A stretch of 57,078 bases of DNA from a virus (taxonomy: Duplodnaviria > Caudoviricetes): IMG/VR virus record IMGVR_UViG_3300044641_001763, positions 1 through 57,078 of that record; one strand, written 5' to 3'. The translations under genes were made by a program, and so were the position numbers. Below are positions 17,767-56,714 of the stretch, one piece after another. The notes under the pieces are model-generated. The model did no database searches. It had not been told where the DNA came from and worked only from the letters and a program-made list of their open reading frames with translations. Numbering within the stretch: the first letter of the stretch is position 1; every line of letters starts with the position of its first letter.

Positions 17767-19728
17767 ATGGCCTCGATGGAGATTGAGCCGCCCCCGCCAG
17801 AACTAAAGGCGTGGGATCCGACGCTTCGTCAGCGTGCGTCTTCCGGCCTGCAGTCTGCGTTTATGGGCATGGGCGCGGATCCGTACAAAGCCCGTCAGCG
17901 GGCGGACACGATCATGGGAGGCCCGAGCAGTAATTTGCCAATGGAAGTAGGGGTGATGGACATCATCGCGGGTAAGAGCCTGCCTGTCACCGCGTTGATG
18001 ACGCCTTTCTATGGCGAAGAGACTGGCCGCAGTATTAAGTCAGCGTCTGAGGCGGCAGACCGCGGTGACTACATTGGAGCCGGGGTTGAGGGTGGATTTG
18101 CAGCGCTGAATCTGCTCCCTGCCATATCTGGGATCACTGGCCTTGCAAGGCGGGTGCTCAGAAAGGCGGACGAGTTCAAACCAATGGCGGTGCCTGAGAC
18201 GCCGAAGATTACAGAGAGCGCATATGAAACAGCCCAAGAAGGACCGTTCTACCGAGTCAAGCCGCGAATTGCTCAAGAAGCTGGACCAGCGAATCGCGGA
18301 ATACGAGAAGAAGTATCAACCGAACCTGTCGGAGGACCAACTGGCGGCGATGTTCCGGGACCAGTACCGGTCGATGTCAAGGCGCTAGTTGCGCAGTCGA
18401 GCAACTTTGTTAGGCGGGCTGCTGATGACTATAGCGTGCGGGCGCTGGGCAAGCCGTATGAGTTGCCGCAGATGCCGAAGGCCTCGCTCGCCAAGCAGAG
18501 CGGCATAGGCCGCACCTTCGAGTTGGCCACGACCGAAGATCCAGCGTACAAGCGGGCGGTGTTCGAGGCGTATGGCCAGCGGTTCCCGGACGTGATTGAG
18601 GCGTCTGGTGCCAAGAACTATGACCAGTTGATGGAGGCTGCGTACCGGCAGATGGCCAAGGAGGCCAAGGACCAGTTCAAGTCCCTGCCGGTCAATATGT
18701 CGTTCTATCGAGCCGGAGAGGGCGCGTACCGAGACAGCCCCGAGATGCTGCAGGACGTGTTCAAGAACCGTCACCTGTATGTGTATCAGGGCGGAGAGCC
18801 GCACAACTTCTTGAACGTCATGGACCCTGAGACAGGTCTGACGGCCAACGAGATGTTCCGGGCGGTGCATGACTTCTACGGCCACGCCGTGCACGGCAAC
18901 CCGTTCGGGCCGAAGGGCGAGGAGATCGCCTACGGTGCGCACTCGCAGATGTTCTCGCCGCTTGCCAGGATGGCGATGCTAAGTGAGACGAGGGGGCAGA
19001 ACTCGTTCGTCAACTACACGCCACTGAACGCCGAGCTGATGCAGCGTATCAACAAGCTAAACGGCATCAAGTATGAGGCGCGTCGGGCCAAAGACGGGAA
19101 CTTAGTTGCGGCGATGGACGCAGACCTAAAGGAGGCTTGGGGCGGTTTCCAGTTCGCGCCAAACAAAGCGCTGCTGCTGCCGCCGGAGTTCCTGAACCCG
19201 CAGTTCACGGGCGGAGTGCCGAGTTACATTCAGCCGATTATCAGGCCTGATCCGAGCACGACCGCGTCGGCTAGGCTGACGCACTTCAGCCAGTCGCCTG
19301 AGCTAGATTTCCTCGATCCTAAGAGGTACGGGACTGGAATCAAGGGCGAAGAGATGGGACGGCTGCAGAGCACGACCAATCCGGTGATGGAGCGGGCCTA
19401 CGCGTACATAGGAGAGAACCCGCGGCCAGAACCTGGACTGGGGCCGTACCGGTATGGCGCTGAAAGCCAGGGGCTGTATGACGTGATGGCTGACCCGGTG
19501 AACCTGCGCACACTGGCGGCGGAGGCCAACAGGACGCCCTATACGTCGCCGTATAACAAGGGGCTGACTGATCCTGGCCAAACCATGACGGACATCGAGC
19601 GGATGGCTAGGGAGTACGGTTACGAGGGCTTGATGAACCCTCAGCAGAGAACGGCGATCATGTTCAACCCGACGCCGGTGCAGCGGTACCAGCGGGGCGG
19701 ATTGGCCGCAATCAAACGGAGAGTGTGA
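17767..19728 (+). CDS. Multidomain polyvalent-type protein: HDxxGH metal-binding domain plus possible ADP-ribosyltransferase-like C-terminus
   Basis: FRAVHDFYGH...GEE...H...ETRGQNS; LTHFS...AY-x-Y...YGYEG; ends YQRGGLA. Confidence 0.55.
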   Translation: MASMEIEPPPPELKAWDPTLRQRASSGLQSAFMGMGADPYKARQRADTIMGGPSSNLPMEVGVMDIIAGKSLPVTALMTPFYGEETGRSIKSASEAADRGDYIGAGVEGGFAALNLLPAISGITGLARRVLRKADEFKPMAVPETPKITESAYETAQEGPFYRVKPRIAQEAGPANRGIREEVSTEPVGGPTGGDVPGPVPVDVKALVAQSSNFVRRAADDYSVRALGKPYELPQMPKASLAKQSGIGRTFELATTEDPAYKRAVFEAYGQRFPDVIEASGAKNYDQLMEAAYRQMAKEAKDQFKSLPVNMSFYRAGEGAYRDSPEMLQDVFKNRHLYVYQGGEPHNFLNVMDPETGLTANEMFRAVHDFYGHAVHGNPFGPKGEEIAYGAHSQMFSPLARMAMLSETRGQNSFVNYTPLNAELMQRINKLNGIKYEARRAKDGNLVAAMDADLKEAWGGFQFAPNKALLLPPEFLNPQFTGGVPSYIQPIIRPDPSTTASARLTHFSQSPELDFLDPKRYGTGIKGEEMGRLQSTTNPVMERAYAYIGENPRPEPGLGPYRYGAESQGLYDVMADPVNLRTLAAEANRTPYTSPYNKGLTDPGQTMTDIERMAREYGYEGLMNPQQRTAIMFNPTPVQRYQRGGLAAIKRRV

Positions 19729-21545
19729 TGCAAACCGAAGCAAGGCGTGAGCGCCTCAAAAAGATGCTTGGTGCTATGCCGACAGAACAGGCGATGCCTG
19801 AGCCGCAGATGGCCAGGGGTGGCAAGGTCAAGGACATTGTTAAGAGCGCTATAACCAGCGCGGCAGAGAAGGCGGGTATAAAGGCACCGGTGACGGCCAA
19901 CAAAGACCTGACGACCCTGCAAGACTTCCACACTTCGGTGATGGACCGGGTCCGCCAAGGCGCAGCCGAGACGCAGAACATGATCGAGTCGATGCCCTTC
20001 AAGTACGACAAGGGCCAGCGCGTGTTTACTGATGACAGCTTCAAAAAGAACAAGCCGCCCTACACGATTCTGGAGCGCACGCGCTTTGGCAATCAGGTGA
20101 TATACGACACCGGCGGCGGCATGAAACCCCGCAGAGATCCTGACACAGGTAAAGTCATGCGCACGCCCTACGAACCGGGCTATAAGGTGCGCCAAGGGGA
20201 CGGCGACGACTACATGGAGTTTGTCATTCCTGAGTCCGCAATCCGTGGCGACGTAGAGATGGCCAAGGGTGGTGCTGCAAAACAGAGAGTGGCGGAAACG
20301 CTAAGAGAAGTTGTTGAAGCCATCCGAGAAAAAGTTGGTCGGAACAAACCTAAAAAAGCGAAGGAAGACGATCATCCGTTAGTGTTTCCGCGAGCCGACC
20401 CAAAAAACAAGGAAGAGCTTCGCCCTATTGCGCAACGTATTGCGCAACAAATGACAAATGAGTTTGTCAGGCAAGATCCCAAGACAACAATGAATGTTGC
20501 AGGGAAGTCTAAAAAGCAGTGGCAACGCGAACAAAACATTCCCTTGGAAGTTAGGAATGTAGTGCCGCCAAAAGACGTGCCAAAAATTGATTACGAAAAG
20601 TATAAGGACTACGCGATTGTAGGTGTTCCAGGCGATCCGTCGCTTGGCGGAGTGTCGAGCAAAGGTTCCTTCGCACAAGCAGCGCGTCCCACTGTTGAAC
20701 TCACTCGTGTAGGCGACATCACGCCAGATTATCCTGTTCCTCTGTATGGAGGCCCAAGGTATGGCGATGAGGAAAGGTTTTGGGCATCAAACTATTCAGC
20801 AGCGCAGCCTGTTCAATCCAACGTTAATGAACTTGGAGCGCTGTACGAATCCCCTGTGTTGGGGCAGTACATCAAGATGGCCCCGGACTCTGCAAACTTT
20901 GCCTTGCATAATCTTGATTCATTGTTAGCAATTCAGCGCCCAGAGCAACTTAGCAAAGAGAAACGCGAGATCCTGAACGACTTGATTAGAAAGGGTTCAA
21001 AAAAGTATGGCCAGTTTCCTGGGTTTGCCGGAGTTGAAGACCCGGTAGATGTGCTGTTACAAGCTCAGATCAACTCAAAGTTGAGGAAGCACATTGCTGA
21101 GACGCTGACGAAGCCACAGATTACAGATGCTTTAGGTTTGCCTCTCGGTAAAGATGTTGTTGCAGCTATAACCCATCCGGAGCTGAGGAACCTAGAGACA
21201 GGAATTAGTGGCTTTTCTGTTGGGCAAATGACGCCCGGAGCTAAATTACAAAAGGGGTTGTCTGAACATCCAACGTATGACACAGACATTCCTGGCGCAT
21301 TAATCGGTCAAAGCAAATATCCTGTTCCTTATGAGATTGCGTTTCCGGACACTACGGCCTACGCTCGCAGTCAGCTCAAACCAGGGGTTCAAGAGTTTAA
21401 TATGATGAAATTGCTGGGGCCGAGAGAGCGAATTGATCAGCAGTACATCGACGAAATAAAGATGTTTGAAGAGCTAATGAAGCAATACACCGGAAAGAAG
21501 AAGGGCGGAGCCGTACAATCCGGTCTTTCTGCACTGCAAAGGTAA
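19725..21545 (+). CDS. Large hypothetical protein segmented by MAxGG motifs
   Basis: 606 aa; MARGGKV, MAKGGAA, KKKGGAV. Confidence 0.75.
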   Translation: MMQTEARRERLKKMLGAMPTEQAMPEPQMARGGKVKDIVKSAITSAAEKAGIKAPVTANKDLTTLQDFHTSVMDRVRQGAAETQNMIESMPFKYDKGQRVFTDDSFKKNKPPYTILERTRFGNQVIYDTGGGMKPRRDPDTGKVMRTPYEPGYKVRQGDGDDYMEFVIPESAIRGDVEMAKGGAAKQRVAETLREVVEAIREKVGRNKPKKAKEDDHPLVFPRADPKNKEELRPIAQRIAQQMTNEFVRQDPKTTMNVAGKSKKQWQREQNIPLEVRNVVPPKDVPKIDYEKYKDYAIVGVPGDPSLGGVSSKGSFAQAARPTVELTRVGDITPDYPVPLYGGPRYGDEERFWASNYSAAQPVQSNVNELGALYESPVLGQYIKMAPDSANFALHNLDSLLAIQRPEQLSKEKREILNDLIRKGSKKYGQFPGFAGVEDPVDVLLQAQINSKLRKHIAETLTKPQITDALGLPLGKDVVAAITHPELRNLETGISGFSVGQMTPGAKLQKGLSEHPTYDTDIPGALIGQSKYPVPYEIAFPDTTAYARSQLKPGVQEFNMMKLLGPRERIDQQYIDEIKMFEELMKQYTGKKKGGAVQSGLSALQR

Positions 21546-21551
21546 TAAGTC

Positions 21552-24110
21552 ATGGCCACACAGATGCCAATTGATCCCGAGTTCGGGAGGTTCGTGCAGG
21601 GCATACCGGACGATGCTTCTCCCGAGCAGCCGCCCGAGGAAGAAGTTGAAGTCGAGCTAACCGATGAAGACCTCGAGGAGTTGCCAGACGGGTCTGTAAG
21701 GGTACGGTTGGACACTGTTGGGCCAATGGAGTCCAAGGACTTTTACGAAAACCTCGCAGATACGGACATCCTAAGCTCCACCGAGCTGGCCACGATGGCG
21801 CTGCGGTTCTGCGAACTGGCAGACAAAGACAAAGAGGCCAGGAAGCAGCGCGATAAGCAGTACGAAGAGGGCATCAAGCGTACCGGACTGGGCAACGACG
21901 CTCCTGGAGGCGCGAACTTCCAGGGGGCGTCGAAGGTCGTCCACCCGGTAATGGCTGAAGCCTGCGTGGATTTTGCGGCTCGAGCGATCAAAGAGCTGTT
22001 CCCGCCAGATGGCCCAACCCGAACGAAGATCTTGGGTGACATCGATCAAGAAAAAGTAGCGATTGCCGAGCGCAAACGCGACTTTATGAACTGGCAGTTG
22101 ACCGAACAGATTGAGGAATTCGGTGACGAGCAGGAGCAGATGCTCACCCAGTTGCCGCTGGGCGGCTCTCAGTACCTGAAAATCTGGTACGACGAGAAGA
22201 AACGACGCCCTTGTGCGCAGTTTTTGCCCATTGACAACGTGCTGCTGCCGTTTGCGACCGCCAATTTCTACACGTCGCCGCGGGTAACCGAGGTTGACGA
22301 CATCTCCGAGTACGAATTCAAGACTCGGATCAGGTCCGGGCTGTATCGGGACACCAGTTATATCCGCGCCACGATGGATCCGGAGCCTACTGCAAGCCAG
22401 AAGGCCACGGACAAGATCGAGGGCAAGTCGCCCAACGAGAACGAGGACGGTTTGCGCCGGGTGTATCACATCTACACATGGCTCGAGCTGGAAGACGATC
22501 CTTATACGAAGGGAGAGTCGGCTCCGTACATCCTGATGATCGATGAAATCGACACTGAAGTGGTCGGTTTGTATCGAAACTGGGAAGACGGCGACAAGAC
22601 GATGACCAAACTCGACTGGATTGTCGAGTTCAAGTTTATCCCCTGGCGCGGAGCCTACGCTGTTGGTCTGCCGCACCTGATTGGAGGCCTTTCTGCGGCC
22701 CTTACAGGCGCTCTGCGGGCCTTGTTGGACTCTGCCCACATCAACAACGCTGCAACGCTGCTGAAGCTCAAGGGGGCCAAGGTATCGGGTCAATCGCAAC
22801 AGGTCGAAGTGACGCAGGTGGCCGAGATTGAGGCAGCTCCCGGCGTGGATGACGTGCGGAAGTTGGCCATGCCGATGCCGTTCAACCCGCCAAGTCCGGT
22901 GCTATTCCAGTTGTTGGGGTGGTTGACGAGTGCAGCCAAGGGTGTTGTGACGACTAGCGAGGAAAAGATCGCTGACGTTAACGCAAATGCCCCGGTTGGG
23001 ACGACGCAGGCGCTGATCGAGCAGGGTGCGGCGGTGTTTTCGTCAATTCATGCCCGGTTGCACAAGTCTCAAGCACGGATGTTGCGTATTTTGTCTCGGA
23101 TCAACCGTTGGTATCTGGATGATATGCAGCGTGCCGAGGTGGTTGAAGACCTTGACATCAAGCGAGAGGATTTTGCGCGGGTAACGGACGTAATTCCGGT
23201 GTCTGACCCGCACATTTTCTCGGAAACGCAGCGGATGGCTCAGACCCAGGCGGTCATGGCCATCATGAAAGACAATCCGGACCTGTTTAATCGTCGGGCA
23301 GTGATCCAGCGGTTCTTGAAGCAGATCAAAGTGCCGGGAATCAACGAACTGATGACGGATGTGCCGCCTCCGGCGAAGATGGACGCCGCTAACGAGAACG
23401 TGGCGATGTCAATTGGGCAGGCGGCGTTCGCATATCCGGAGCAGGATCACCTCGGACACATTCAGGCGCACTTGGACTTTGCGAAGAACCCGGTTTTGGG
23501 GTCGAACCCGTTCATTGCGCCAGGGTTCTTGCCGAAAGCCATCGAGCACATTAAGCAGCATCTGGTGTTGTGGTACCTGACTAGGATGAATGGCTACGTT
23601 CAGAAGGCGATGAACGCGAAGCTCGGCGAGTACGAGATGCTGGACGATCCGAAGGACGTGGATCGGCTATTTGCGCTTGCAAGCCAGCACGTTGACCTTG
23701 ATACTCAGCAGACCCTGCAGGGCATTATGCCGGTCATCCAGAAGATGATTCAGCAGCAACAGCAGTTCAAGCCGAAGCCTGACCTTACGCCGGATGGGCA
23801 AGTGTTGTTGCAGACGAGCATGGCAGAAACGCAGCGCAGGCAGCAGCGTGATCAGGCTGAGATGCAGCTCAAGGACAAGCAGGTTGCCGCGGAGATTGAG
23901 CGCGAGATGCAGAAGCTGCAGTTTGAGCAGCAGAAGGCAATGGAAGAGTTGCAGCTTAAACTTGCGATTGCAACGGGTGATATGGAGTTGAAAGAACGCA
24001 TCGAGACGGCGCGATTGACGCGTGATGCGGCGCACATTGTCAACGACAAGGAGCGTATCGTCTTGGATTATCAAACCAAACTTGGAGGTTCCGGTGGCTA
24101 CCAGCAATGA
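21552..24110 (+). CDS. Portal protein
   Basis: 852 aa after terminase; HPVMAEA, ELFPPDGP, PVGTTQALIEQG; coiled C-terminus. Confidence 0.88.
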   Translation: MATQMPIDPEFGRFVQGIPDDASPEQPPEEEVEVELTDEDLEELPDGSVRVRLDTVGPMESKDFYENLADTDILSSTELATMALRFCELADKDKEARKQRDKQYEEGIKRTGLGNDAPGGANFQGASKVVHPVMAEACVDFAARAIKELFPPDGPTRTKILGDIDQEKVAIAERKRDFMNWQLTEQIEEFGDEQEQMLTQLPLGGSQYLKIWYDEKKRRPCAQFLPIDNVLLPFATANFYTSPRVTEVDDISEYEFKTRIRSGLYRDTSYIRATMDPEPTASQKATDKIEGKSPNENEDGLRRVYHIYTWLELEDDPYTKGESAPYILMIDEIDTEVVGLYRNWEDGDKTMTKLDWIVEFKFIPWRGAYAVGLPHLIGGLSAALTGALRALLDSAHINNAATLLKLKGAKVSGQSQQVEVTQVAEIEAAPGVDDVRKLAMPMPFNPPSPVLFQLLGWLTSAAKGVVTTSEEKIADVNANAPVGTTQALIEQGAAVFSSIHARLHKSQARMLRILSRINRWYLDDMQRAEVVEDLDIKREDFARVTDVIPVSDPHIFSETQRMAQTQAVMAIMKDNPDLFNRRAVIQRFLKQIKVPGINELMTDVPPPAKMDAANENVAMSIGQAAFAYPEQDHLGHIQAHLDFAKNPVLGSNPFIAPGFLPKAIEHIKQHLVLWYLTRMNGYVQKAMNAKLGEYEMLDDPKDVDRLFALASQHVDLDTQQTLQGIMPVIQKMIQQQQQFKPKPDLTPDGQVLLQTSMAETQRRQQRDQAEMQLKDKQVAAEIEREMQKLQFEQQKAMEELQLKLAIATGDMELKERIETARLTRDAAHIVNDKERIVLDYQTKLGGSGGYQQ

Positions 24111-24237: not shown

Positions 24238-24423
24238 GTGAGGACGATTGGCGACCTTATAGGTCAAATTAAAGCGTCACAGGCTGAAATAGCCTTGTCC
24301 TTGGCGGCTGGGAATGCGCCTACATGGGACGCTTATCAAAGACTTGTCGGGAGGCATGAAGGGCTGCAAGATGCCTTGGACATTCTCGACAACCTAATGA
24401 AGGATGATGATGAACATGAATGA
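24238..24423 (+). CDS. Small helical head-module protein
   Basis: 61-aa ORF between portal and GroES. Confidence 0.7.
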   Translation: MRTIGDLIGQIKASQAEIALSLAAGNAPTWDAYQRLVGRHEGLQDALDILDNLMKDDDEHE

Positions 24424-24847
24424 ACCGGAAGCGGTGAACACTGCTGAATTGGCTTGGGCATTTCCGAGCGTAGACCCCGGTGCAAAACCTCTTGGTGGCC
24501 GTATTTTGGTGCAGTTGCGGCGTACTAAAAACAAGACGACAAGTGCCGGGATTATTTTGGTTGAAGAAACCAAAGAAACCGAAAAGTGGAACAACATGGT
24601 GGCAAAGGTCATCGAGATTGGTCCGTTGGCGTTCAAGCATCGAGACACGATGCAATCATGGCCGGAAGGCTCGTGGTGTAAAGCCGGGGACTATATCCGC
24701 GTACCCAAGTGGGGCGGAGATCGATGGGAAGTGAAAGTGCCTGGGGAACACGACAAGGAAGACCCTGCGCTGTTCATGATCCTGAACGACCATGAAGTGA
24801 TTGCCAAGGTAACTTGCGATCCGTTGGCCATGAGGGCATTTGTATGA
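24410..24847 (+). CDS. groES: GroES-like co-chaperonin
   Basis: KPLGGRILV, TSAGIIL, VIEIGP, GD-x-I-x-x-x-KWGG, ILNDHEVIA. Confidence 0.85.
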   Translation: MNMNEPEAVNTAELAWAFPSVDPGAKPLGGRILVQLRRTKNKTTSAGIILVEETKETEKWNNMVAKVIEIGPLAFKHRDTMQSWPEGSWCKAGDYIRVPKWGGDRWEVKVPGEHDKEDPALFMILNDHEVIAKVTCDPLAMRAFV

Positions 24848-26920: not shown

Positions 26921-27835
26921 ATGGCCGCTCCAATGCGTAGTACCGACTTTCGGTCAATTGTTGAACCGATCCTTAATGAATGTTTTGATGGTGTTTACGA
27001 CCAGCGAGCTGACGAGTGGAGCCGAGTGTTCCGCGAGCAGCAGGGCATTCCCCGCAATTATCACGAAGAACCTGTCCTGTACGGTTTTGGCGCAGCGCCT
27101 GAGCTGGCTGACGGCACCCCGGTGACGTATCAGCAGGGTGGCGTACTGTTCCTGAAGCGCTATGTGTACAAGGTGTATGGCCTTGCCTTCGCCCTGACCA
27201 AAGTGTTGACGGAAGACGGCGACCACATCCGTATTGGTTCGGTTTACGCTCGCCATCTGGCGCAGTCGCTCATTGAAACCAAAGAGACGCTTGCCGCGAA
27301 CGTGCTTAACCGCGCATTCAACGCTTCGTATCCTGGCGGTGACGGTGTGGCGCTGAACAGCAATGCGCATCCGATTGTCAACGGCACGTTCAGCAACTTG
27401 CTGACGACCGCGGCAAATCTGTCGCAGACCTCGCTCGAGCAGATGCTGATCCAGATCCGTCAGGCTGTTGACAACAACGGCAAGAAGATCCGTTTGGTTC
27501 CGCGTCAGCTTGTTGTGGCTCCAGGCAACGTCTTCCAGGCTGAAGTGCTGCTGAAGAGCGTGTTGCGTGCTGGCGTGGCTAACAACGACATCAACCCGAT
27601 CAAGTCGATTGGCTTGCTCGATGAGGGTGCCGCGGTTATCTCGCGTCTGACCAGTGCGACTGCTTTTTGGGTTCAGACTGACGCGCCTGAAGGCATGAAG
27701 CTGATGATGCGTCGTGGTCTGGAAAAGACGATGGAAGGTGACTTTGAAACCGACTCCATGCGGTACAAAGCGACCGAGCGTTATGACCTCGGCTTCACTG
27801 ACCCGCGTGCGATGTACGGCACTCCTGGTGTTTAA
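26921..27835 (+). CDS. Major capsid protein (Mu gpT-like, HK97 fold)
   Basis: 304 aa; GDGVAL...HP, LVVAP, NNDINP, RYDLGFTDPR; biased codons. Confidence 0.9.
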   Translation: MAAPMRSTDFRSIVEPILNECFDGVYDQRADEWSRVFREQQGIPRNYHEEPVLYGFGAAPELADGTPVTYQQGGVLFLKRYVYKVYGLAFALTKVLTEDGDHIRIGSVYARHLAQSLIETKETLAANVLNRAFNASYPGGDGVALNSNAHPIVNGTFSNLLTTAANLSQTSLEQMLIQIRQAVDNNGKKIRLVPRQLVVAPGNVFQAEVLLKSVLRAGVANNDINPIKSIGLLDEGAAVISRLTSATAFWVQTDAPEGMKLMMRRGLEKTMEGDFETDSMRYKATERYDLGFTDPRAMYGTPGV

Positions 27836-27858: not shown

Positions 27859-28887
27859 ATGGCCCTCACTAATTTCCCGAATGGGATCACTAGTTTCGGG
27901 GTGCCTGTTCTCGGAACCATCGGCGGCTTGCCGTTTACTGGAAACTACTATTTTGTAGATCCATTGAACGGCGCTGATGGTAACGATGGCACGCCTGAAC
28001 TGCCGCTCAAAACGTTGTACGGCGCTTTGGCTAAATGTACTGCTGGCAACAACGATGTGGTTCTTCTGATGGGCGATGGTACTTCGGCGGGTTCTGCCCG
28101 TCTGAGTACGGCGCTTGCTCAGGAAATTAATTCGTCTGCGACCAACGGTACGCTGAACTGGAACAAGAACGCCACTCACTTGATTGGTGTTTGCGCTCCG
28201 ACTTCAGTAGCTCAACGAGCGCGTATTGCTCCGCCAGCGGGCACCTATACTGCCGCGACTTTCAACGCAACCACGTTTATCAACGTGACTGCGTCGGGGT
28301 GTTACTTTGCGAACCTGTCTGTATTCTGCGGGTTTAGCACGGGTAATGCTGCGATGATTGCGTGGCAGGACAGTGGTAGTCGGAATGCGTACTCGAACGT
28401 CAACATCTTCGGCATGGCGGATGCAGCGTCTGCTGGAGGCGCGAACGCTCGGACGCTGAAGCTGCTTGGCGGTGGTGAGAACACGTTCATCAACTGCACC
28501 TTGGGCGGTGATACGGTGGCACGAAGCGCAGCAAATGCTACTGTCGAGCTGGCTAACGGAACAGCGCGGAACTCGTTCATTGACTGCGTTTTCCCCTTCC
28601 AGGCTTCCGCTGCAACGCCCGTTGGTCTTCGGGTTACGCAGGGAGGCATGGATCGGTACGCGCTGTTCAAGGGGTGTACGTTCATCAACAACGTGGGTTC
28701 TACTTCAACCACGCTATCGGCGTTTGCAACGATTGCAACGTCGTCTGGCGGGCAGGTTGTTGTTGCAAACACGATGATGGTCGGCATTACCGAGTTCGGT
28801 TCTGATGCTGCGTCACTGGGTCAGATTTACGTTGATATGGCCGCGCCGTCTGCAAGCGCTGGCGGTATCGCCGTGAATCCGTCCTAA
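27859..28887 (+). CDS. Head fibre/spike with beta-helix (pectin lyase-like) fold
   Basis: TNFPNG start; YFVDP..GADGNDG...PLKTL; repeated F-x-x-C-T-F. Confidence 0.6.
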   Translation: MALTNFPNGITSFGVPVLGTIGGLPFTGNYYFVDPLNGADGNDGTPELPLKTLYGALAKCTAGNNDVVLLMGDGTSAGSARLSTALAQEINSSATNGTLNWNKNATHLIGVCAPTSVAQRARIAPPAGTYTAATFNATTFINVTASGCYFANLSVFCGFSTGNAAMIAWQDSGSRNAYSNVNIFGMADAASAGGANARTLKLLGGGENTFINCTLGGDTVARSAANATVELANGTARNSFIDCVFPFQASAATPVGLRVTQGGMDRYALFKGCTFINNVGSTSTTLSAFATIATSSGGQVVVANTMMVGITEFGSDAASLGQIYVDMAAPSASAGGIAVNPS

Positions 28888-36143: not shown

Positions 36144-36146
36144 ACC

Positions 36147-36416: not shown

Positions 36417-36419
36417 GTC

Positions 36420-41588: not shown

Positions 41589-41630
41589 GTAACGACCAAT
41601 AAAAAAGGCATCAACTAAAAAGGCGCTCAC

Positions 41631-47934: not shown

Positions 47935-48191
47935 TGGCCGCGAGTAACGCATTCGTCTATGATCCGAGGTATCACACCTTTGAATCATGGGCGTGCTTGA
48001 TGGTCGAACAGTACGCTGCGCAGCAACTGTCTATCCCAACAGCAGACACAGACTGGAAAGCCTGGGGGCAAGGATTGCTTGCTATTGACGTGTTTACAAA
48101 CGAAGCAGTCCCGGACCCTGCTCAGTTTGGCGAATGGTTCGATTGGGCTGCGGCGTTGTTTGGCGCAATCAATCCGGGGATGCCTCAATGA
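47934..48191 (+). CDS. Small Trp-rich tail protein
   Basis: 85 aa; coupled to nozzle. Confidence 0.65.
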   Translation: MAASNAFVYDPRYHTFESWACLMVEQYAAQQLSIPTADTDWKAWGQGLLAIDVFTNEAVPDPAQFGEWFDWAAALFGAINPGMPQ

Positions 48192-48841
48192 ATTGGTGTA
48201 ATGACTCGCCTGCGTGGACTAGCTGTTGCCATGCGTTGAGCATCCTGTTTCCGGCTTGGGAACGGGCGTTTACAGTAGTTGCAGCGCACTACAAGCCTCA
48301 CGTCTCGCCTGAGCTGGCGCATCGTATAGATTCGTTCATCAAAGAAGAAAACGCTCACGCTAACGCTCACGAGGCCTACAACCGTAGACATAACTTGTTG
48401 GAAGCACAAGAGCAAGAGATGGCCAAGACCGCGGTCGTCCATCGCCGTCCGGGCCGCAAGTTTTGGCTAGGGACTATGGTGTCCATCGAACATCTGGCGG
48501 CTTGTATGGCCAGGATGTATATGGGTCGTTTTGCTGGCCAAGAGGGGCGAGATTACAAGCTGTTTGAGTGGCACTCGATGGAAGAGTTGGGTCACAAAGA
48601 TCTAGCGATGGATGTCTGGAACGAGATGGGTTTTGATGGGCTTGATGAGATTGCCAAACAAAACCAGCAATACGTTTGTACGTTCATTATCAAGTATGTG
48701 GCGAGCAGGACTAACTGGAAGTCTCCCGTAGCTATCTGGGACTTTGTGAGGTGGTTCTGGGTCATGACATGGGAAGTATTCATTCCAATGCGGTACATTC
48801 TGGACGACGGATTTCATCCTAACCAGCGGGTGGTTGCATGA
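48188..48841 (+). CDS. Ferritin-like dimetal protein ('predicted metal-dependent hydrolase' family)
   Basis: ALSILFPAWE, EENAHANAH, IEHL, WHSMEELGHK. Confidence 0.75.
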   Translation: MNWCNDSPAWTSCCHALSILFPAWERAFTVVAAHYKPHVSPELAHRIDSFIKEENAHANAHEAYNRRHNLLEAQEQEMAKTAVVHRRPGRKFWLGTMVSIEHLAACMARMYMGRFAGQEGRDYKLFEWHSMEELGHKDLAMDVWNEMGFDGLDEIAKQNQQYVCTFIIKYVASRTNWKSPVAIWDFVRWFWVMTWEVFIPMRYILDDGFHPNQRVVA

Positions 48842-49305: not shown

Positions 49306-49307
49306 AA

Positions 49308-52300
49308 ATGGGCTGGGCAAGAAAAGAATTGGGGATTGAACTCAACCCTTTCCGGGTTGCAGAAAGCGCTCTGAATAAAATTGGCAACACCATAACAGCG
49401 ATTATGAACAACCCAATCCCGGCGATTTTGCAGGTTGCCGGGGCTATGATCGGTATCCCCCCATACGTTACAGCAGCGGCTGTTACTGCGGTTCAGGGAG
49501 GGGATTTTGAAGATATTGCTAAAGCTGTTGCAGTCTCTTATGTAACAACAGAGTTTTTGCAAAACACGCAAATTGGTGCAGACATCCGTAATTACACATC
49601 AAACCTGATAGCAGGGGATGTTACGGATTACATGATTGAGAACTTTGACATCTCAATGGACCAAGCGGTCACAGTAGCCAAGATGACTACGGCTGCAGTG
49701 AACGGAGCTGTTGTTGGCGGAATCCGTTCGACCTTGCTGGGAGACAGCATTGCAACAGGAATGGCGCAAGGCTTCTCTCAAGGTCTTGTGTACTCTGGGG
49801 TGGATAGTTACTTTGATGACCTTAACAAAGATCCAAACTGGGGTCTAGGCCCGAAGACCTTAAACCTTGTCAAAGGCGCAACAAGCACTGCACTCAACAC
49901 ATTGATTAGCGGGAAGGGCGACCCTGGTGCTGCGATTGGTAATTATCTTGCGTATGCAACGCTTAAAATTGGCGCGTCAGAAGCAAAAACGGCGTTCCAA
50001 AGGGCATACGACGAATACACCGGGAAAACAGACGAGGCAAGAAACGCTCAAGCTGCTTTTGTAAACACAAGAGCGGAGTACGATTCAGAAGTTCGTCGGC
50101 ATGACATGATTGCTGATGAAATTAGACAGCAAGCTGCTGCGCATAACGACATCCTTACTAATCAACTGGCCCCGATTCGCGCCCAATTAGAAAAAGAACA
50201 AGCCGAAGTCGAGATGCAGCAGATTTTTCAAAAGGACGCACTTAAAACATTTGAAGATAACAAGTGGGCGTATGAAAACTATGACGCTAAGTTAAAACAG
50301 CTTGGGTATCAACTTGTTTCTGTACCAAGTTCAGAAGGTGGCGGTAATTACGATACTTATTGGGTTAAACAAACAGGCACGCAAATGGTGCCTCAATCTT
50401 ATAATGACGGAGATTACACGACTGTAAGTATGGTTGAAGTGCCTATTATTGATTATAACGTTTCTCCCCCTTCTCAAGAAAGTTTTGCCGTTGCAGCAAA
50501 TGCCGCTGGTGCGCAAGCAAACAATCACTATACGTTAGCGCAACAAGCGGCAGATCGGTACAAAGCTGTTGCTCAGTCAGAACAAACCAACAATTTGCTT
50601 GTGCAATTAGAGGCGATAAAAACAGAAATCGGACAAAAAACAGCAACTCTTAGCACGATTCGTCAGAATATTGAGACCCCTAAAGATGGCAACCTTGCAG
50701 AGCGTTTGAAAGTTGCTGCTGAGAGGTACGACAACAAATACAACTTGTATAAGTCCTCCGAGGAGGCCACGAAGCGAGCGGCAGAAAATTACAACCGCAT
50801 CATGGCGGAAGTTGTTGTTCGTGATGCAACGATTGATGCCATCAATGAGGGCGCTATTACGGTCACTGGCCGCAACGCGGACGGCAGCTTCACGCTTGAC
50901 AACGGGTTCACCGTCAAGGATGGGAAGTTCTTTCAGAACAACGAGCAGTTGTTTACGAACGCTGCTGGCCTATCGCAAAACGTACTTGAGCTGGCCACGC
51001 CTGACGGACAGGTCACGCGTTACGGCATGGATGCTGGCCGTCAACTATCTACAACGGACGTTCAAAATATCTTCAAACGTGATTACGGACTGAACGTATC
51101 GCTAGACGAGGCGAGGCGTTTTGCTGGGTCTGCGTTTGACAAAGTAGAGAACGCAAAACTGCAAGACTTTGCGATAGACAAGATCTCGCAAGAGTTCAAA
51201 TCCATCACAAACAAAGATCTGTCTGCTGCTCAAGCCAAAGAACTGTTAGTGCAACAAGACTCAGTAAAAGCCGCTCAAGAACGGGCCATCATTGAGTCCA
51301 ACTTGTATGTTCCTTCTGGCGAAGCACAAGACAGAATTGCCTTCGCTAAAGCTGCTGCAGAAGCTCAAAGACAAGGTAAAGATCGGTTTTCGTTTACGCG
51401 TTCAGACGGTCAAGTTGAAGATCATTTTATCGAAACTAATGCACAACGCGCTGCTGCTCAAGAGCGTGCGGTTATTGAAACCGCTCTTACAGAGCAAGTT
51501 GCTGGTTCTACAATTCAACCACAAAACTCGTTCAGAGAATCTGCAGCTCGAGAATTGCTTGAGTCTTACAAAAACCAAGGTTTGTCGCCGCAAGAAATTG
51601 ATCAGAAATTGTCTTCTGGCCAAGCTGCAAAAGATTTGAATGAAGTGTTGAATGTTAAACAACAGCAGATTGAACAACAAAAAACAAATGTTGAATCTGC
51701 AGAGAAAGAATTTGGAAGAAATAGCGCGGAAGCCAAAGACGCGTACAGGGAAGTTGTTGAAAACATGGCCGATTATGGCGGCTATGGGTACGAGAAAAAT
51801 GAAGACGGAACAATTTCTCACAAAGATCTTGGCAAACTTGACCCAGAAACTCTTGTTCCTGTGGATCGATCAAAATCGTGGACAGACCCTGTAACAGGAA
51901 AGTTGCATATTGAAATTACCGGAGTTGGTAGTGATGAAAAAATTCCGGCAAAAGATGTCTCTGCCCTGTGGGGTATAGGCAAGTCAGGAAACCCGCCGAC
52001 TATTGGCGGAGAGGCTATTTTTGGTGATGGTTCTGGAGTGTCGCCAGGGTCGCCTGGACTAACGCTTATTGCCGTTGACGATGGATCGGGAGATGCTAAT
52101 GCCAAGATGTTTGATGTTGGCAACGGGTTTGCACTGATTGCTTATTCAGACGGCAGAACCAAACTTGTCAAAAACGATGGCACAGTGTTTTTTGTTGACA
52201 CTGAAGACGCTAAAAAAGCTATGGAGAAGATGCCTGTTGTTACGGCTCCAACTATTGCTATTGATGGCGGCAAGAAAGAAGAAACTCCGCTGGAAAAAGG

Positions 52301-55300
52301 ACTAGGAGAATTTTACAAAGTTCTTACAGATCCACAGTTGGCCGACAAACTGTATCCAAAAACACCAGAACAACCGACTGTTCCAGCTCCTGTCACGCCA
52401 ACACCTGTTACGCCTCCAGGCACGCCGGAAGCGCCCGTTACTCCTCCAGTCACTCCTGAAACGCCTGTTACGCCTCCGGTAACTCCGGAGACCCCCGTGA
52501 CGCCTCCTGTCACGCCTGTTACTCCCCCAGTAACACCCGAGACGCCGGTTACTTCGCCTGTCACGCCCAGCAACGAAGTTGAGCAATTGCGTCAGCAGTT
52601 GACGCAGCAAATCCAAGCAGCGCAGGCCACGGGCAAAGCCGACGTTGAGGCTGTCCAGCAGGCTGTTAATACGGTTGCGGCTAACCTGGGGACAACCAAG
52701 GAAGAGCTGCTGCAGAGGCTAGGAACCAGCGAGACGCAGTTGCGCACGGACATTACGTCGCAGGTCGGTGGTGTTGAAAACAGGTTGACGCAAGCAATCA
52801 ATCAAGCCAAGCAGTCAGGCCTTGATGGGGATGCTGCGCTTCAGGCGGCTATTACGAAAGTTTCCGGTGACCTGGGAACAACGAAGACAGACCTGCTATC
52901 GCAACTTAGAAAGACGGAAGAGCAACTTCGCGCTGATGTGGCGTCGCAAGTTTCTGGCGTTCAGACACAGATTGGCGGCGTTGAAAGCCGATTGTCAGAG
53001 GCTATCACCCAAGCTAAAGCAGCAGGAATGCAAGGCGATCAAGCGCTGCAGTCTGCAATTGATAAAGTTGCCGGGGATGTTGGAACAACGAAAGCGGATT
53101 TGCTTGGGCAACTGGGCAAAACGGAACAGCAACTGCGATCAGACTTTGCTAGCCAGCTAGGCGGTGTTCAGGCCCAAATTGGTAATGTTGAATCTAGGTT
53201 GACAGATGCAATCGCTCAAGCTCGTTCTGCAGGTTTAGAAGGAGATCAAGCGCTACAGGTTGCAATAAACAAGGTTTCAAGCGACGTAGGTCTGACAAAA
53301 ACAGACCTTCTTGCTCAGTTGGGCAAAACTGAACAGCAGCTTCGATCTGACCTTTCAAGTCAAATTGGTGGCGTTGAATCTCGCTTAACTGATGCAATTG
53401 CTCAAGCTCGGCAGTCGGGCATGGCGGGCGATGCGGCGCTGCAGGCAAGTATTGACAAGGTTGCAGCCGAAGCCGGACTCACTAAAGAACAGCTATTGAC
53501 TCAGCTTGGCAAGACTGAAGCCCAGCTCAGACAAGATGTGGGTGCTCAGATTGGCGGGGTTGAATCTCGTTTGACAGAAGCTATTGCTCAAGCGAGGCAG
53601 TCTGGACTAGACGGAGAGGCCGCGCTGCAAATCGGATTGAACAAAGTAGCGTCTGATCTGAACATCACAAAAGACCTTGTGCTGGAGCAGGTTGGCAAGA
53701 CTGAATCTCAACTTCGCACTGACTTTGCCGAACAACTTGGCGGAGTGCAACTGCAAATAGAGAAGGTTCAGTCCGACTTAAACAAGGCGATTGCAGACGC
53801 AAAGTCTGCGGGCGCTTCGGATGTAGAAGCGGTTCGAAACGCGGTCAATCAGGTTGCCACTGACCTTGGAACTAACAGCACTGCGTTGTTGTATCAACTT
53901 GGAACGACTGAGACGCAACTGCGGTCGGAAATGCGTTCCGGGCAAGAGGCTACGCAGGAGCAGATTCGAGAGCTTGGTTCTGTATTCATGCAGCAGTACG
54001 ACGCTTTGAGCGCAGCGCAGAAGCAGCAGTTTGACGCCTTGGTTGAGCAAGGCGCAAATATGCAGACGGCCATGAACACAATTCAGGCAGACATTCAGTC
54101 TGAGTTGCAGAACGTTGAAAGCAGACTGACGTCCGCGGTGGCAGCTAACGAGGCGGCTGGACTCTCGAGGGACCAAGCGCTTACCAAAGCGATTGGAGAC
54201 GTCGCCGCAAACGTTGGGTTGACCAAAGAAGACTTGTTGTCCCGCATGGGTCAAAGCGAAGCGGCTTTGCGCGAGCAGTTTGCCGCGGGTCAAACGCAAA
54301 CCCAGCAGCAGATTGCAAACCTTGACGCGAGCACGCAGGCGAAGTTTGCACAGATGTCTGAAGCCCAGAAGGCTCAGGCGTTGCAATTGGCTCAAACCTC
54401 TGGCGACCTGACTGCCGCAATTAACAACGTGGCGGCAACGACCACTGCGCAGATTGGAAACGTTGAGACGAGGCTTAAAGAGGCGATGGCCGCGAATGAA
54501 GCGGCTGGGTTGTCTCGCGATCAAGCGGCGGCAAAAGCAATTGACGATGTTGCTGCAAGCGTTGGGTCTACAAAAGCTGATTTGTTGTCGCAACTAGGAA
54601 AGACTGAAGAGACAATCCGCGGGGAGTTGGCCGCAGGGTTGGCAGGGGTACAGACTGGTCTTGAACAACAACTGGCTGGAGTGCAGTCAAGGCTGAACGA
54701 GGCCATTGCGGCTAACGAAGCTGCAGGCCTGTCTCGAGATCAAGCGATTGCCAAATCTATTCAAGACGTGGCCAGCAACCTTGGCGTAACAAAAGACGCG
54801 CTGCTTGCGCAGATGGGCACCACTGAACAGACCTTGCGTGGCGAATTGGCGGCTGGGTTGCAGGCGACGCAACAGCAACTAAGCCAGCAGATGCAGGCGC
54901 AGTACCAGCAACTGACAGAGGCGCAGAAAGCGGAGGTTGATGCCCGAGTCAGGCAAGGTCAAGACCTAACGGCTGCAATTACTGCTGTAGGTGCGCAGAC
55001 TGCTTCGCAAATCGCTCAGACAGAAGCTGCTTTGCGAGAATCGATTCAGCAGCTCGGCACGGATGTACAGGGTCAGTTCAACCAGATGTCCGAGTCTCAG
55101 AAGGCTGAGGTAGCAGCCAGGGTTCAGCAGGGACAGGATTTGAACGCTGCTATCCAGAATGTCAGTCAGCAAACATCGCAGCAGATAGCGGCGTCTGAAG
55201 CTAGTTTGCAAGCTGCGATAGGCCAGCTTGGGACTAACGTACAACAGCAGTTTTCGCAGATGGATGCTGCGCAGAAAGCAGAAGTTGTTGCTCGAGTACA

Positions 55301-56714
55301 GCAGGGGCAAGATCTTCAGTCTGCGATTACGAACGTTGGGTCTGAGATGGCGCAACGTATTGCAGAAAGCGAGCAAGGTCTTCGTACTGCTATTGGTCAA
55401 CTTGGGGCTGATGTTCAAGGCCGGTTTGACCAGATGTCGGACGCGCAGAAGGCCGAGGTGGCTGCTCGGGTGCAGCAGGGACAGGACTTGCGCGGCGCAA
55501 TTGACAACGTTGGCCAGCAGACGACTCAACAGATTGCTGCGTCAGAAGCAGCGATGCGTCAGGCTATTGGGCAACTGGGTACTGACGTTCAAACCCAATT
55601 TGGGCAGATGTCAGCAGCTCAACAGGCAGAGGTTGCTGCTCGAGTTCAACAAGGACAAGATTTAAGCGCTGCCATTCAGAATGTTGGTCAGCAAACAACG
55701 CAGCAAATTGCGGCGAGTGAAACTGCTTTGAAGGGTCAAATTTCTTCGCTTGGCGAAGATATGCAAAAGCAGTTCAACGCGATGAACGAGTCGCAACAAA
55801 CTCAGTTCAATTCAATGAACGAGGCGCAACAAGCAGAAGTCGCTGCACGCGTTCAGCAAGGCGAGACTCTTGACTCGGCCATCAAAACAGTGGGCCTCCA
55901 AGTTACGGAACTTGGAGAAAAGCTGACTACGGATGTTCAAGACATCCGTAAGACGATGGAAGAGGAAAACAAGCGCAAGCAAGCTGCGGATCGGGCTTCC
56001 GCAGCAAAAACGCAGCAAGAGCAGTTACTTCAAAAGGCCCAGCAAAACATCGCGGTTCCTGGCGCTGGAGGAGCAACTGGAGGAACAGAAGCTCCGACGC
56101 CCTCTCCGCAATTCAGGCAGGCTTTGACGACCGGGCAAGGTCAAGAAGCTAAGTTTGAGGGGCCGCTCGAGGAATTTTTGAAGAAGGTCGAGACGACTTC
56201 GTACACGCAACCGGCGGGACAAGCTATGCAACAGCCGCAACAACAAGTAACCCAGCAGCCGCAGGCCACGCAAGTGGCGCAGCAGCAAGGGCCAAACTAC
56301 TACTCATATGGCGTGTTCAACGAGATCGATTCGATCTTGAACCCGCTACAGAACATCATGCCTACGATGTTTGCCAAGGAGGGTGGCTTGGCTGCGCCGT
56401 TGATGGCAAAAGGTGGCTTGAATGTTGTGCATCATTCAGGCAAGCCTCGATTGGATTTTCGACAGGGTGCGGCGGTCAGTGGACCCGGTGATGGGCAGTC
56501 GGACGACATCCCTGCAATGTTGGCTGATGGGGAGTTTGTGTTCCCCGCTGATGTTGTTGCTGCTTTGGGGAATGGATCAACCAAGGCAGGAAGCGATAAA
56601 CTATACGACATGATGCATTCAATCCGGTCGTACCATCGATCGGCAAAACCGCAGGATTTGCCCCCGCCTGCTAAGAAGTCCCCGTTGGATTATTTGAAAA
56701 AGGCTAGGAGATAG
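49308..56714 (+). CDS. 2468-aa internal virion/ejection protein with long helical repeats and tape-measure-like C-terminal motif
   Basis: Hydrophobic N-terminus; PVTP linker; 62/69-aa and 58-aa repeats; GPGDGQSDDIPAMLADGEFV. Confidence 0.75.
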   Translation: MGWARKELGIELNPFRVAESALNKIGNTITAIMNNPIPAILQVAGAMIGIPPYVTAAAVTAVQGGDFEDIAKAVAVSYVTTEFLQNTQIGADIRNYTSNLIAGDVTDYMIENFDISMDQAVTVAKMTTAAVNGAVVGGIRSTLLGDSIATGMAQGFSQGLVYSGVDSYFDDLNKDPNWGLGPKTLNLVKGATSTALNTLISGKGDPGAAIGNYLAYATLKIGASEAKTAFQRAYDEYTGKTDEARNAQAAFVNTRAEYDSEVRRHDMIADEIRQQAAAHNDILTNQLAPIRAQLEKEQAEVEMQQIFQKDALKTFEDNKWAYENYDAKLKQLGYQLVSVPSSEGGGNYDTYWVKQTGTQMVPQSYNDGDYTTVSMVEVPIIDYNVSPPSQESFAVAANAAGAQANNHYTLAQQAADRYKAVAQSEQTNNLLVQLEAIKTEIGQKTATLSTIRQNIETPKDGNLAERLKVAAERYDNKYNLYKSSEEATKRAAENYNRIMAEVVVRDATIDAINEGAITVTGRNADGSFTLDNGFTVKDGKFFQNNEQLFTNAAGLSQNVLELATPDGQVTRYGMDAGRQLSTTDVQNIFKRDYGLNVSLDEARRFAGSAFDKVENAKLQDFAIDKISQEFKSITNKDLSAAQAKELLVQQDSVKAAQERAIIESNLYVPSGEAQDRIAFAKAAAEAQRQGKDRFSFTRSDGQVEDHFIETNAQRAAAQERAVIETALTEQVAGSTIQPQNSFRESAARELLESYKNQGLSPQEIDQKLSSGQAAKDLNEVLNVKQQQIEQQKTNVESAEKEFGRNSAEAKDAYREVVENMADYGGYGYEKNEDGTISHKDLGKLDPETLVPVDRSKSWTDPVTGKLHIEITGVGSDEKIPAKDVSALWGIGKSGNPPTIGGEAIFGDGSGVSPGSPGLTLIAVDDGSGDANAKMFDVGNGFALIAYSDGRTKLVKNDGTVFFVDTEDAKKAMEKMPVVTAPTIAIDGGKKEETPLEKGLGEFYKVLTDPQLADKLYPKTPEQPTVPAPVTPTPVTPPGTPEAPVTPPVTPETPVTPPVTPETPVTPPVTPVTPPVTPETPVTSPVTPSNEVEQLRQQLTQQIQAAQATGKADVEAVQQAVNTVAANLGTTKEELLQRLGTSETQLRTDITSQVGGVENRLTQAINQAKQSGLDGDAALQAAITKVSGDLGTTKTDLLSQLRKTEEQLRADVASQVSGVQTQIGGVESRLSEAITQAKAAGMQGDQALQSAIDKVAGDVGTTKADLLGQLGKTEQQLRSDFASQLGGVQAQIGNVESRLTDAIAQARSAGLEGDQALQVAINKVSSDVGLTKTDLLAQLGKTEQQLRSDLSSQIGGVESRLTDAIAQARQSGMAGDAALQASIDKVAAEAGLTKEQLLTQLGKTEAQLRQDVGAQIGGVESRLTEAIAQARQSGLDGEAALQIGLNKVASDLNITKDLVLEQVGKTESQLRTDFAEQLGGVQLQIEKVQSDLNKAIADAKSAGASDVEAVRNAVNQVATDLGTNSTALLYQLGTTETQLRSEMRSGQEATQEQIRELGSVFMQQYDALSAAQKQQFDALVEQGANMQTAMNTIQADIQSELQNVESRLTSAVAANEAAGLSRDQALTKAIGDVAANVGLTKEDLLSRMGQSEAALREQFAAGQTQTQQQIANLDASTQAKFAQMSEAQKAQALQLAQTSGDLTAAINNVAATTTAQIGNVETRLKEAMAANEAAGLSRDQAAAKAIDDVAASVGSTKADLLSQLGKTEETIRGELAAGLAGVQTGLEQQLAGVQSRLNEAIAANEAAGLSRDQAIAKSIQDVASNLGVTKDALLAQMGTTEQTLRGELAAGLQATQQQLSQQMQAQYQQLTEAQKAEVDARVRQGQDLTAAITAVGAQTASQIAQTEAALRESIQQLGTDVQGQFNQMSESQKAEVAARVQQGQDLNAAIQNVSQQTSQQIAASEASLQAAIGQLGTNVQQQFSQMDAAQKAEVVARVQQGQDLQSAITNVGSEMAQRIAESEQGLRTAIGQLGADVQGRFDQMSDAQKAEVAARVQQGQDLRGAIDNVGQQTTQQIAASEAAMRQAIGQLGTDVQTQFGQMSAAQQAEVAARVQQGQDLSAAIQNVGQQTTQQIAASETALKGQISSLGEDMQKQFNAMNESQQTQFNSMNEAQQAEVAARVQQGETLDSAIKTVGLQVTELGEKLTTDVQDIRKTMEEENKRKQAADRASAAKTQQEQLLQKAQQNIAVPGAGGATGGTEAPTPSPQFRQALTTGQGQEAKFEGPLEEFLKKVETTSYTQPAGQAMQQPQQQVTQQPQATQVAQQQGPNYYSYGVFNEIDSILNPLQNIMPTMFAKEGGLAAPLMAKGGLNVVHHSGKPRLDFRQGAAVSGPGDGQSDDIPAMLADGEFVFPADVVAALGNGSTKAGSDKLYDMMHSIRSYHRSAKPQDLPPPAKKSPLDYLKKARR
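52387..52569 (+). repeat. PVTP/PETPVTP-coding tandem repeat
   Basis: About 10 degenerate PVTP units. Confidence 0.85.
54924..55870 (+). repeat. 174-bp (58-aa) tandem repeats
   Basis: QxAEV.ARV.QG at 54924, 55098, 55272, 55446, 55620, then 55827. Confidence 0.85.

Follow-up and report, generated by a model that had tools for sequence, protein, structure and literature searches.

Why does the same short peptide recur in several late proteins of one virus? The virus (Duplodnaviria; Caudoviricetes) is IMG/VR record IMGVR_UViG_3300044641_001763, and the window analysed here is that whole record, 57,078 bases long and rated complete. The peptide is centred on a glycine pair and has the form hydrophobic/K-x-x-G-G-x-V/A (more fully hydrophobic or K, K/A, x, G, G, x, V/A), frequently extended to the tandem K-K-K-G-G-(A/E)-V-(H/K)-M-A-x-G-G-(L/A). 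Comparison of the carrier sequences with those of relatives indicates that the motif is strictly junctional or terminal and widely distributed. It marks the joints and tails of modular proteins, is conserved there, and belongs to proteins that this phage group most likely carries in the virion and delivers to the host. The carriers are polyvalent effectors encoded ahead of the portal gene, a small DUF6321 protein, a tape-measure-like giant, and a disordered protein with 19 copies.

The original prediction quoted sites in five late proteins, and all of these are present at their coordinates. They are YQRGGLA (19687-19707) in a protein of 653 amino acids (aa); MARGGKV (19809-19829), MAKGGAA (20259-20279), and KKKGGAV (21495-21515) in a 606-aa protein; MNDGGVA (30486-30506) and LKSGGSV (30636-30656) in a 174-aa protein; AKEGGLA (56373-56393) and MAKGGLN (56403-56423) in a 2468-aa protein; and a series of copies, put at about 14, in a 372-aa protein. 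The last two single sites do not fit the pattern of which they were given as instances. The repeats of the 372-aa protein are real, in a different number: it holds 19 GG, of which nine match the strict pattern and 16 score at least 4 bits by a motif matrix built from 67 non-redundant members of its family. Nor are the five carriers unrelated, as had been supposed. The 653-aa and 606-aa proteins come from one split gene, and the carriers are modular relatives of polyvalent or tape-measure proteins.

Inside the window alone, the excess of motifs is modest, and the strong evidence comes from relatives. When the G positions are fixed and the other residues shuffled for 1000 rounds, the proteins other than the repeat protein hold 11 strict-pattern matches against 5.07 ± 2.17 expected, a number reached in 12 of the 1000 shuffles. 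They hold five matrix matches of at least 4 bits against 1.07 expected (five reached in 4 of 1000 shuffles), all within the 606-aa and 174-aa proteins. The strict pattern also matches tail or ejection proteins, for example at KPTGGLA, YTPGGTA, KITGGIA, KDNGGVV, and YWVGGTA. All such matches score below 2 bits by the matrix, and the five named ones are at or below zero; therefore, they are probably due to chance. The major capsid protein, from which the motif had been reported absent, indeed has no matrix match of at least 4 bits.

On the evidence of sequence alignment, the 653-aa protein (17767-19728, plus strand) and the 606-aa protein (19725-21545, plus strand) together make up a polyvalent effector protein, one half each, which relatives encode as a single fused chain. 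The upstream half has six homologues with 62-84% identity among the pre-portal genes of relatives, and in locus L051 its counterpart is fused to further modules. The downstream half, with which four loci were gathered, aligns over residues 175-606 with the C-terminal part of fused proteins of 1437 aa and at least 1606 aa (72-77%). The fused relatives carry ART-PolyVal, LPD23, and ParB_N (locus L002); others carry PcfJ, DUF7178, and DUF3990, with ART-PolyVal and DUF3990 together in L059 and PcfJ in L058 and L046. Neither half in the window contains a Pfam-recognised module; the 653-aa protein has no Pfam family, and its PHROG match (3170) is of unknown function.

The gene split falls inside a motif tandem. 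The upstream half ends in ...YQRGGLAAIKRRV, which includes the site at 19687-19707, and the downstream half has MARGGKV at residue 29, so that a motif copy is kept at the break on both sides. In the fused relatives, a tandem such as KAAGGEVHMDKGGAA or KKKGGAVNMQAGGLA directly follows the recognised domains, as after ART-PolyVal (domain 34-178, motif 188) and ParB_N (domain 1044-1104, motif 1105). Three other 653-like halves end in GGLAAIKRRK, GGLSAVKGKR, and GGLAAIKRSR; the half in L027 lacks such an end.

Between the last two motifs of the 606-aa protein lies a conserved domain of ~380 aa (about 20370-21500, plus strand). Its profile retrieves 1893 clusters at E ≤ 0.001 among 1.84 billion representatives, in proteins of 296-2124 aa that contain the domain at any position; tblastn in 50,697 phage records gives a single weak metagenomic match. 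Among 30 representatives of the family scanned with Pfam, nine have ART-PolyVal, nine PcfJ, and three LPD23. The domain itself has no Pfam family and no ESM Atlas annotation. Its predicted model (pLDDT 87.6, pTM 0.85) has no Foldseek match at E ≤ 0.001 and weak PUA/YTH-like matches by VIA (best YTH: Z 5.3, root-mean-square deviation 4.0, 141 residues aligned), which may reflect only a common arrangement. Against solved structures the profile finds only 4xj6 (E 0.39 and 0.61). We considered the domain as a protease and rejected this, since the model has no protease fold and the structure-profile, Foldseek, and VIA searches yield at most weak matches. To judge from the model, it may be a new polyvalent-protein domain, perhaps one that binds nucleic acid.

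The placement of the motif was analysed in the best 150 representatives of the ~380-aa-domain family and in the pre-portal proteins of the gathered loci. The 150 representatives contain 1783 GG against 1264 expected from composition, with GG-GG spacings that peak at 7 and 8 (58 and 87 cases); V is enriched 4.3-fold at position +2, and M, F, and Y are enriched at -3. At least one tandem is present in 92 of the 150, with the consensus G-K-K-K-G-G-(A/E)-V(80%)-(H/K/R)-M(64%)-A-x-G-G. Strong motifs occur 356 times outside the core of the shared domain and never inside it, and a GG lies at most 60 residues ahead of the domain in 110 of the 129 proteins with more than 60 residues upstream. When 37 pre-portal proteins are compared with the window, 301 of 611 homology breakpoints are within 12 residues of a GG (21% expected). 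After clustering, 96 of 277 are near a GG against 58.2 expected (binomial P 1e-7, with breakpoints that are not independent).

The C-termini are marked as well. A GG is found in the last 25 residues of 32 of 35 pre-portal proteins, whatever the last domain, and typical ends are ...KKKGGAVxSGLSALxK and ...GGLAALRK. In the representatives, 134 of 150 carry a GG within their 30 C-terminal residues, compared with 23% of all 30-residue windows; as controls, none of 120 giant proteins and 90 of 506 other open reading frames (ORFs) do so. The last GG is followed by 6-20 residues in 119 of the 150 and by five or fewer in one, and no protein ends in GG in either set (150 and 35 proteins). By sequence, the 150 tails fall into the DDLILEERPL type (35, acidic), the GLSAL type (21), the LIKVK type (10), the KKVKRHG type (5), others (69), and none (10); K and R make up 24% of the last eight residues against 13% overall. 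The original prediction thus holds in that the motif is above chance, modestly so in the window, and lies at termini and domain boundaries where homologues conserve it; the frequency and the lack of conservation that it had named as grounds for giving up the idea are not what is found.

The 372-aa protein (28924-30042, plus strand) is a disordered repeat protein rich in K, G, A, and M (G 15%, K 14%, A 13%, M 7.5%), with a conserved N-terminal 20-mer, Y, F, or M before most GG, and the C-terminus ...KKRGGAVTC. A search of viral contigs gave 109 relatives, of which 80 were kept. The repeat ORF is present in 83 loci, and removal of identical copies and of one unlike ORF (L085) left the 67 members used for the matrix, with 1163 GG sites. 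At these sites, position -3 is M, Y, L, or F in 67%, position -2 is K, A, or N, and position +2 is V or A in 49%. In 17 aligned members the motif copies, the 20-residue N-terminus, and the final Cys are all conserved. Ends seen in the family are GGAVTC, GGRVC, and GGRC, with the motif 2-4 residues from the C-terminus. The protein has no Pfam or PHROG family and no tblastn match in the 50,697 phage records.

The 174-aa protein (30369-30893, plus strand) consists of an N-terminal module, a middle module, and DUF6321 (PF19846; residues 110-172, E 2.2e-22, 79.9 bits against a curated cut-off of 28.5), joined by MNDGGVA and LKSGGSV. In 56 non-redundant DUF6321 homologues, two optional middle modules are gained or lost exactly at (K/R)-M-K-(D/E/K)-G-G. 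Fused DUF6321 copies, with at least 30 residues upstream, have a GG within eight residues upstream of the domain in 49 of 49 cases, a count that leaves out four sequences without a recognisable domain start. In cyanophages (L087, S-TIP37, 3016-3231; L088; L089), DUF6321 also occurs alone, as proteins of 71-86 aa encoded between the scaffold and capsid genes of T7-like phages, and as the C-terminal part of a 707-aa protein of a T4-like phage; its presence in both suggests a widespread head-region module of aquatic phages. No paper naming DUF6321 was found in the literature search. The DUF6321 proteins end in RWKC or RWNCPGW (window 30891-30893) and have a second conserved Cys in SFCARM, and the final Cys of the repeat protein (window 30040-30042 region) is invariant in 17 of 17; these may be paired cysteines or a metal site in head-associated proteins.

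The 2468-aa protein (49308-56714, plus strand) is a tape-measure-like ejection protein, whose C-terminal profile matches tape measure proteins. Of the first 599 candidate stretches that a search of viral contigs with its end gave, 569 are relatives, and 80 of these were retained. The two GG copies directly precede an extremely conserved element (...GPGDGQSDDIPAMLADGEFV..., about 56430-56711), and GG copies are doubled or tripled in the 45 relatives inspected out of 70 aligned. The profile matches 8zdo_S (E 1.8e-5, two copies) and 8rk3_A (E 0.0066), two solved tape measure structures in which only the extreme C-termini are built. The tape measure of mycobacteriophage Douge carries the element twice, each copy after YAGGGFL or YANGGFL. 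Pseudomonas phage JBD30 is also matched, and its authors predict a "hook" at tape measure residues 1022-1066. By tblastn, the element also turns up in Arthrobacter, Gordonia, and Rhodococcus phages, in genes annotated as tape measures, and in GP066c of Caulobacter phage RW. In GP066c, NMARGGYAV precedes the element and RYMDGGRV forms the C-terminus; in Arthrobacter phage RadFad, KKKAGGGPV precedes it and FATGGAA follows.

The wider tape-measure element reads YA-x-GG-x-(V/L)-x-GPGTG-x-SD-x-IPA-x-LS-x-GEFV. The 2468-aa protein is like the known tape measures (Douge, JBD30, RadFad, RW GP066c) in the C-terminal element and the preceding GG copy, and unlike them in its podovirus-like gene order, which lacks a tape measure, and in an insertion between GG and GPG. 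Because the element and its GG occur in tape measures of other phages, the motif is older and wider than this phage group. We also considered the C-terminal element as an S24/S26-like Ser-Lys peptidase and set this aside: 0 of 42 members match a peptidase family, even at E ≤ 10.

By its codon usage, the motif is selected at the protein level and is not a DNA signal. The GG codon pairs are free to vary and are mostly GGC/GGT; orthologous GG sites use 7-9 different codon pairs, and synonymous change is seen. A Shine-Dalgarno or internal-start reading of GG-x-V-x-M (GGAGG, spacer, ATG) is rejected on the same codons and because a Shine-Dalgarno-like word (GGAGG/AGGAG) is near only 29 of 1230 GG sites. 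Mimicry of the GroES mobile loop, considered because a GroES-like gene follows the portal gene, is set aside as well: the residues after the GG form no hydrophobic triplet like that of the loop, and the conserved residue is upstream.

What, then, would such a peptide do? We tentatively favour a short linear docking or cargo-handling peptide, an explanation to which we give somewhat less than even weight. The motif would be exposed in flexible linkers and at C-termini, where a single partner, shared by all carriers and located in the head or portal region, would bind it; cargo modules of very different kinds could then be loaded and held by the same handle, and many copies would add avidity. 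A bound peptide is favoured by the C-terminal copies, by the copy on each half of the split gene, by the tandem and 19-fold multiplicity, and by the failure to find a protease. The copies in GGAVTC, GGRVC, GGRC, and RYMDGGRV, 2-4 residues from the C-terminus, would be hard to explain by cutting. We infer that the carriers are packaged, that the motif is bound rather than cut, and what its partner would be.

The Caulobacter phage RW group, the nearest cultured relatives by capsid protein (77%), shares the portal-to-capsid genes and lacks the polyvalent, repeat, and DUF6321 proteins, which suggests that the motif-bearing head proteins are accessory cargo and not assembly parts. Several points count against a docking peptide, the same absence among them. 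Packaging of the polyvalent proteins is indicated only by the place of their gene, which lies between those of the large terminase and the portal protein. The tails that follow the final GG form several unlike classes and differ among loci though the capsid is at least 90% identical, so that a single receptor is not obvious. None of the three stand-alone DUF6321 genes has the motif, and the split pair of genes in L078 and L054 has it replaced at both new ends, whereas one would expect a loading label to be kept. In addition, the terminal GG copy of the 2468-aa protein may in part belong to the wider tape-measure element, with a structural role of its own.

Alternatively, the motif could be a processing site, at or next to which a phage or host protease cuts; we regard this as doubtful. 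Cutting would free the modules, remove C-terminal targeting tails after assembly, and shred the 19-site protein to peptides, much as the T4 prohead protease acts on core proteins and targeting sequences or the adenovirus protease on core precursors. The strictly junctional placement and the loss of the motif in stand-alone modules speak for cutting. The tail of 6-20 residues after the last site in most representatives fits a removable address peptide, tandem sites could free a spacer, and the absence of the repeat protein from RW, with the same capsid genes, indicates that it is not a core structural part. Processing has a precedent in the zincin-like peptidase that Iyer et al. proposed for polyvalent proteins (PMC5512222); that peptidase is not found here (Pfam, 30 representatives).

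The original prediction left cleavage site and address label side by side, a pair that is still apt, although no protease was found for the first, and its statement that no HK97-type prohead protease is recognisable agrees with the scans of the larger ORFs of the window. Scans with Pfam and PHROG find no peptidase family there, the small early-region ORFs not all being scanned, and, with the same coverage, no clan CE cysteine protease; no C39 family appears in any Pfam scan made. The 178-aa and 190-aa proteins of the portal-capsid interval have no family, protease families included, in Pfam and PHROG scans, and the 178-aa protein has no annotated look-alike in the ESM Atlas. Nor does Pfam find a peptidase in 30 of the 150 polyvalent representatives (those of at least 1000 aa with an id number divisible by three). 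A Metal_hydrol gene (PF10118, "predicted metal-dependent hydrolase"; 48134-48841, plus strand, E 3.1e-31) lies just 5' of the 2468-aa gene in the tail/ejection module. As a candidate protease it was set aside, being found in no more than 11 of the loci fetched and having no solved relative; phage RW lacks it at this place. A literature search for a prohead protease with Gly-Gly in bacteriophages found nothing, and the Sulfitobacter phage GT1 paper does not mention cleavage or protease.

Several features of the proteins themselves also speak against cutting. The only universal domain has no protease fold, none of the 150 and 35 proteins ends in GG, and copies 2-4 residues from the C-terminus would gain nothing from it. 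The register differs from the adenain-type (M/I/L)xGG to which the motif had been likened, the hydrophobic residue being three and not two positions before the first G, with K or A at -2. The comparison with double-glycine leaders also fails, as the motif is internal or C-terminal with no N-terminal leader. Adenovirus, African swine fever virus (ASFV), and C39 sites resemble it in having a G-G core with an upstream hydrophobic residue on several virion proteins; they differ in that the residue here stands one step farther upstream of the G-G, that the scanned ORFs include no clan CE or C39 protease, and that an N-terminal leader is missing. In T4, gp21 cuts the capsid targeting signal, which stands at the N-terminus, at L/I-x-E. 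The present peptides are like the T4 targeting sequences in that a short address peptide on head-internal proteins would stand beside a conserved short recognition site, and unlike them in having tails at the C-terminus and G-G as the site, and in that a protease is not seen.

A more specific form of docking would have the diverse effector modules attach in the manner of encapsulin cargo, through a glycine-hinged peptide inside the HK97-fold capsid or on the portal, with the 19-valent protein as carrier or competitor; by analogy this is conceivable, and we think it unlikely. Encapsulin targeting peptides (PMC7925596) are short and C-terminal behind a glycine hinge, for example NTGGDLGIRK and PLTVGSLRRGG, and bind inside an HK97-fold shell. 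The phage carriers, proteins without other kinship, likewise end in a short peptide that follows a glycine hinge, and the phage too has an HK97-fold shell; the tails GGLAALRK and GGLAAIKRR resemble NTGGDLGIRK and VGSLRRGG. As to the encapsulin-type core of that source (GSL or hydrophobic-G-hydrophobic with a basic end), 21 of the 150 tails are of the GLSAL type and K and R are frequent in the last eight residues, but 35 tails are of the acidic DDLILEERPL type. In contrast to encapsulins, the particle is that of a tailed phage filled with DNA, the motif occurs internally and in repeats as well, and many tails, such as DDLILEERPL, are dissimilar. The likeness is a resemblance and not a demonstrated relation.

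The motif could instead be a passive universal joint, a soluble, flexible, protease-resistant hinge that lets modules thread the portal or tail channel singly and whose sameness eases exchange between phages, which we consider rather improbable. It is exactly at the motif that modules are gained, lost, or change their order and that homology breakpoints cluster, and the junctional placement and the loss of the motif in stand-alone modules were weighed for the hinge as well; moreover, a hinge needs neither partner nor protease, and neither was found. However, a hinge has no need for a conserved hydrophobic residue at -3, a V at +2 (80% in the tandem), and an M at fixed spacing. It leaves the extreme C-terminal copies and the 19-copy protein unexplained, and the DNA identity that would drive recombination is not seen, because the codons vary.

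Self-association of the copies, which would pair through short beta strands between glycine turns so that the basic 19-copy protein gathers the carriers, and perhaps DNA, into an internal body, seems to us very improbable, although the same motif is on all carriers and the repeat protein has the composition of a sticker-and-spacer disordered protein. That the sites outside the repeat protein are accidents of Gly/Lys-rich composition is hardly credible, because for all the small excess within the window and the accidental look of several tail-protein matches, the motif recurs at the same junctions and tails in relatives less than 50% identical, which contradicts it.

Polyvalent proteins, tape measure elements, and DUF6321 are already known. 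Polyvalent proteins, which occur in phages and conjugative elements, were defined by Iyer, Burroughs, Anand, de Souza, and Aravind in 2017 (PMC5512222) and are believed to be packaged and to enter the cell together with the DNA. The present proteins are like those described there in being large, multi-module products of head-region genes, with relatives that carry ART-PolyVal, LPD23, ParB_N, and PcfJ, and unlike them in that the window copy is split in two genes without a Pfam-recognised module. A GG joint or tail is not in the main text of that paper by word search ("linker" 0, "glycine" 0; supplements not seen). A common Gly-Gly joint or tail and the 19-copy protein were not found in print, and a literature text search for the motif with phage gave nothing relevant among the papers listed. 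Polyvalent proteins are thought to be the first weapons that a phage delivers, and how such varied modules enter the particle or get cut is a question to which a conserved peptide, at the joints and at nearly every C-terminal tail of a family of at least 1893 clusters, offers a concrete, mutable handle. As a label, the motif could serve to bring foreign proteins into phage particles; as a cleavage site, it would imply a phage or host protease that has so far escaped recognition. Either way, it gives a simple rule for dividing giant proteins into modules for annotation. Encapsulin-like docking, if true, would mean that proteins delivered by phages have a portable label for packaging that works generally, and would connect phage capsids with encapsulin compartments by function.

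The carriers are embedded in a late region that starts with a small terminase of the Sf6 type (15565-16185) and a large terminase (16172-17584) and continues with the 653-aa, 606-aa, portal, GroES-like, 317-aa, 178-aa, 190-aa, and capsid genes. The portal protein (21552-24110, plus strand; PHROG 1216 portal, E 1.4e-18), a candidate receptor, has its gene start 7 bases 3' of the end of the polyvalent gene. The GroES-like co-chaperonin (24404-24847, plus strand; Cpn10, E 2.6e-7; PHROG 3188) is encoded between the portal and scaffold-like genes, is 74-93% conserved in 47 loci, and is GroES by annotation in Caulobacter phage RW. A charged, scaffold-like 317-aa protein is encoded 3' of it and 5' of the capsid gene. 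The major capsid protein (26921-27835, plus strand; Phage_capsid_4, E 4.9e-11), the other candidate receptor, has at least 89% identity across the loci of relatives; among metagenome proteins, 6963 of 8000 scored candidates are relatives at E ≤ 1e-5, and the best 120 are 89-94% identical.

The capsid gene is followed by the genes of a 342-aa protein, the 372-aa repeat protein, a 93-aa protein, the 174-aa DUF6321 protein, and a weak match to an SU10-type adaptor (30895-31956). The 342-aa gene (27859-28887, plus strand), flanked by the capsid and repeat genes, varies: 24 homologues were counted in the loci that yield 68 for capsid, and in other relatives its place is taken by proteins of 230-427 aa. 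The remaining late region encodes tail proteins and a GH108 lysin, and closes at the far end of the record with the 2468-aa protein and, after it, an SLT-domain protein. ORFs extend past both record ends (56717-57076 and 1-888). If the ends are joined base to base, the downstream frame would begin at position 2, and no ORF of at least 80 aa comes from that frame at the window start; therefore, the record is probably not a simple circle cut inside one gene. Within the window, G+C falls to 0.43-0.44 at 36001-42000, against 0.49-0.60 elsewhere, across a 1722-aa gene (36420-41588) that has no Pfam family and may be a recently exchanged fibre or host-recognition gene.

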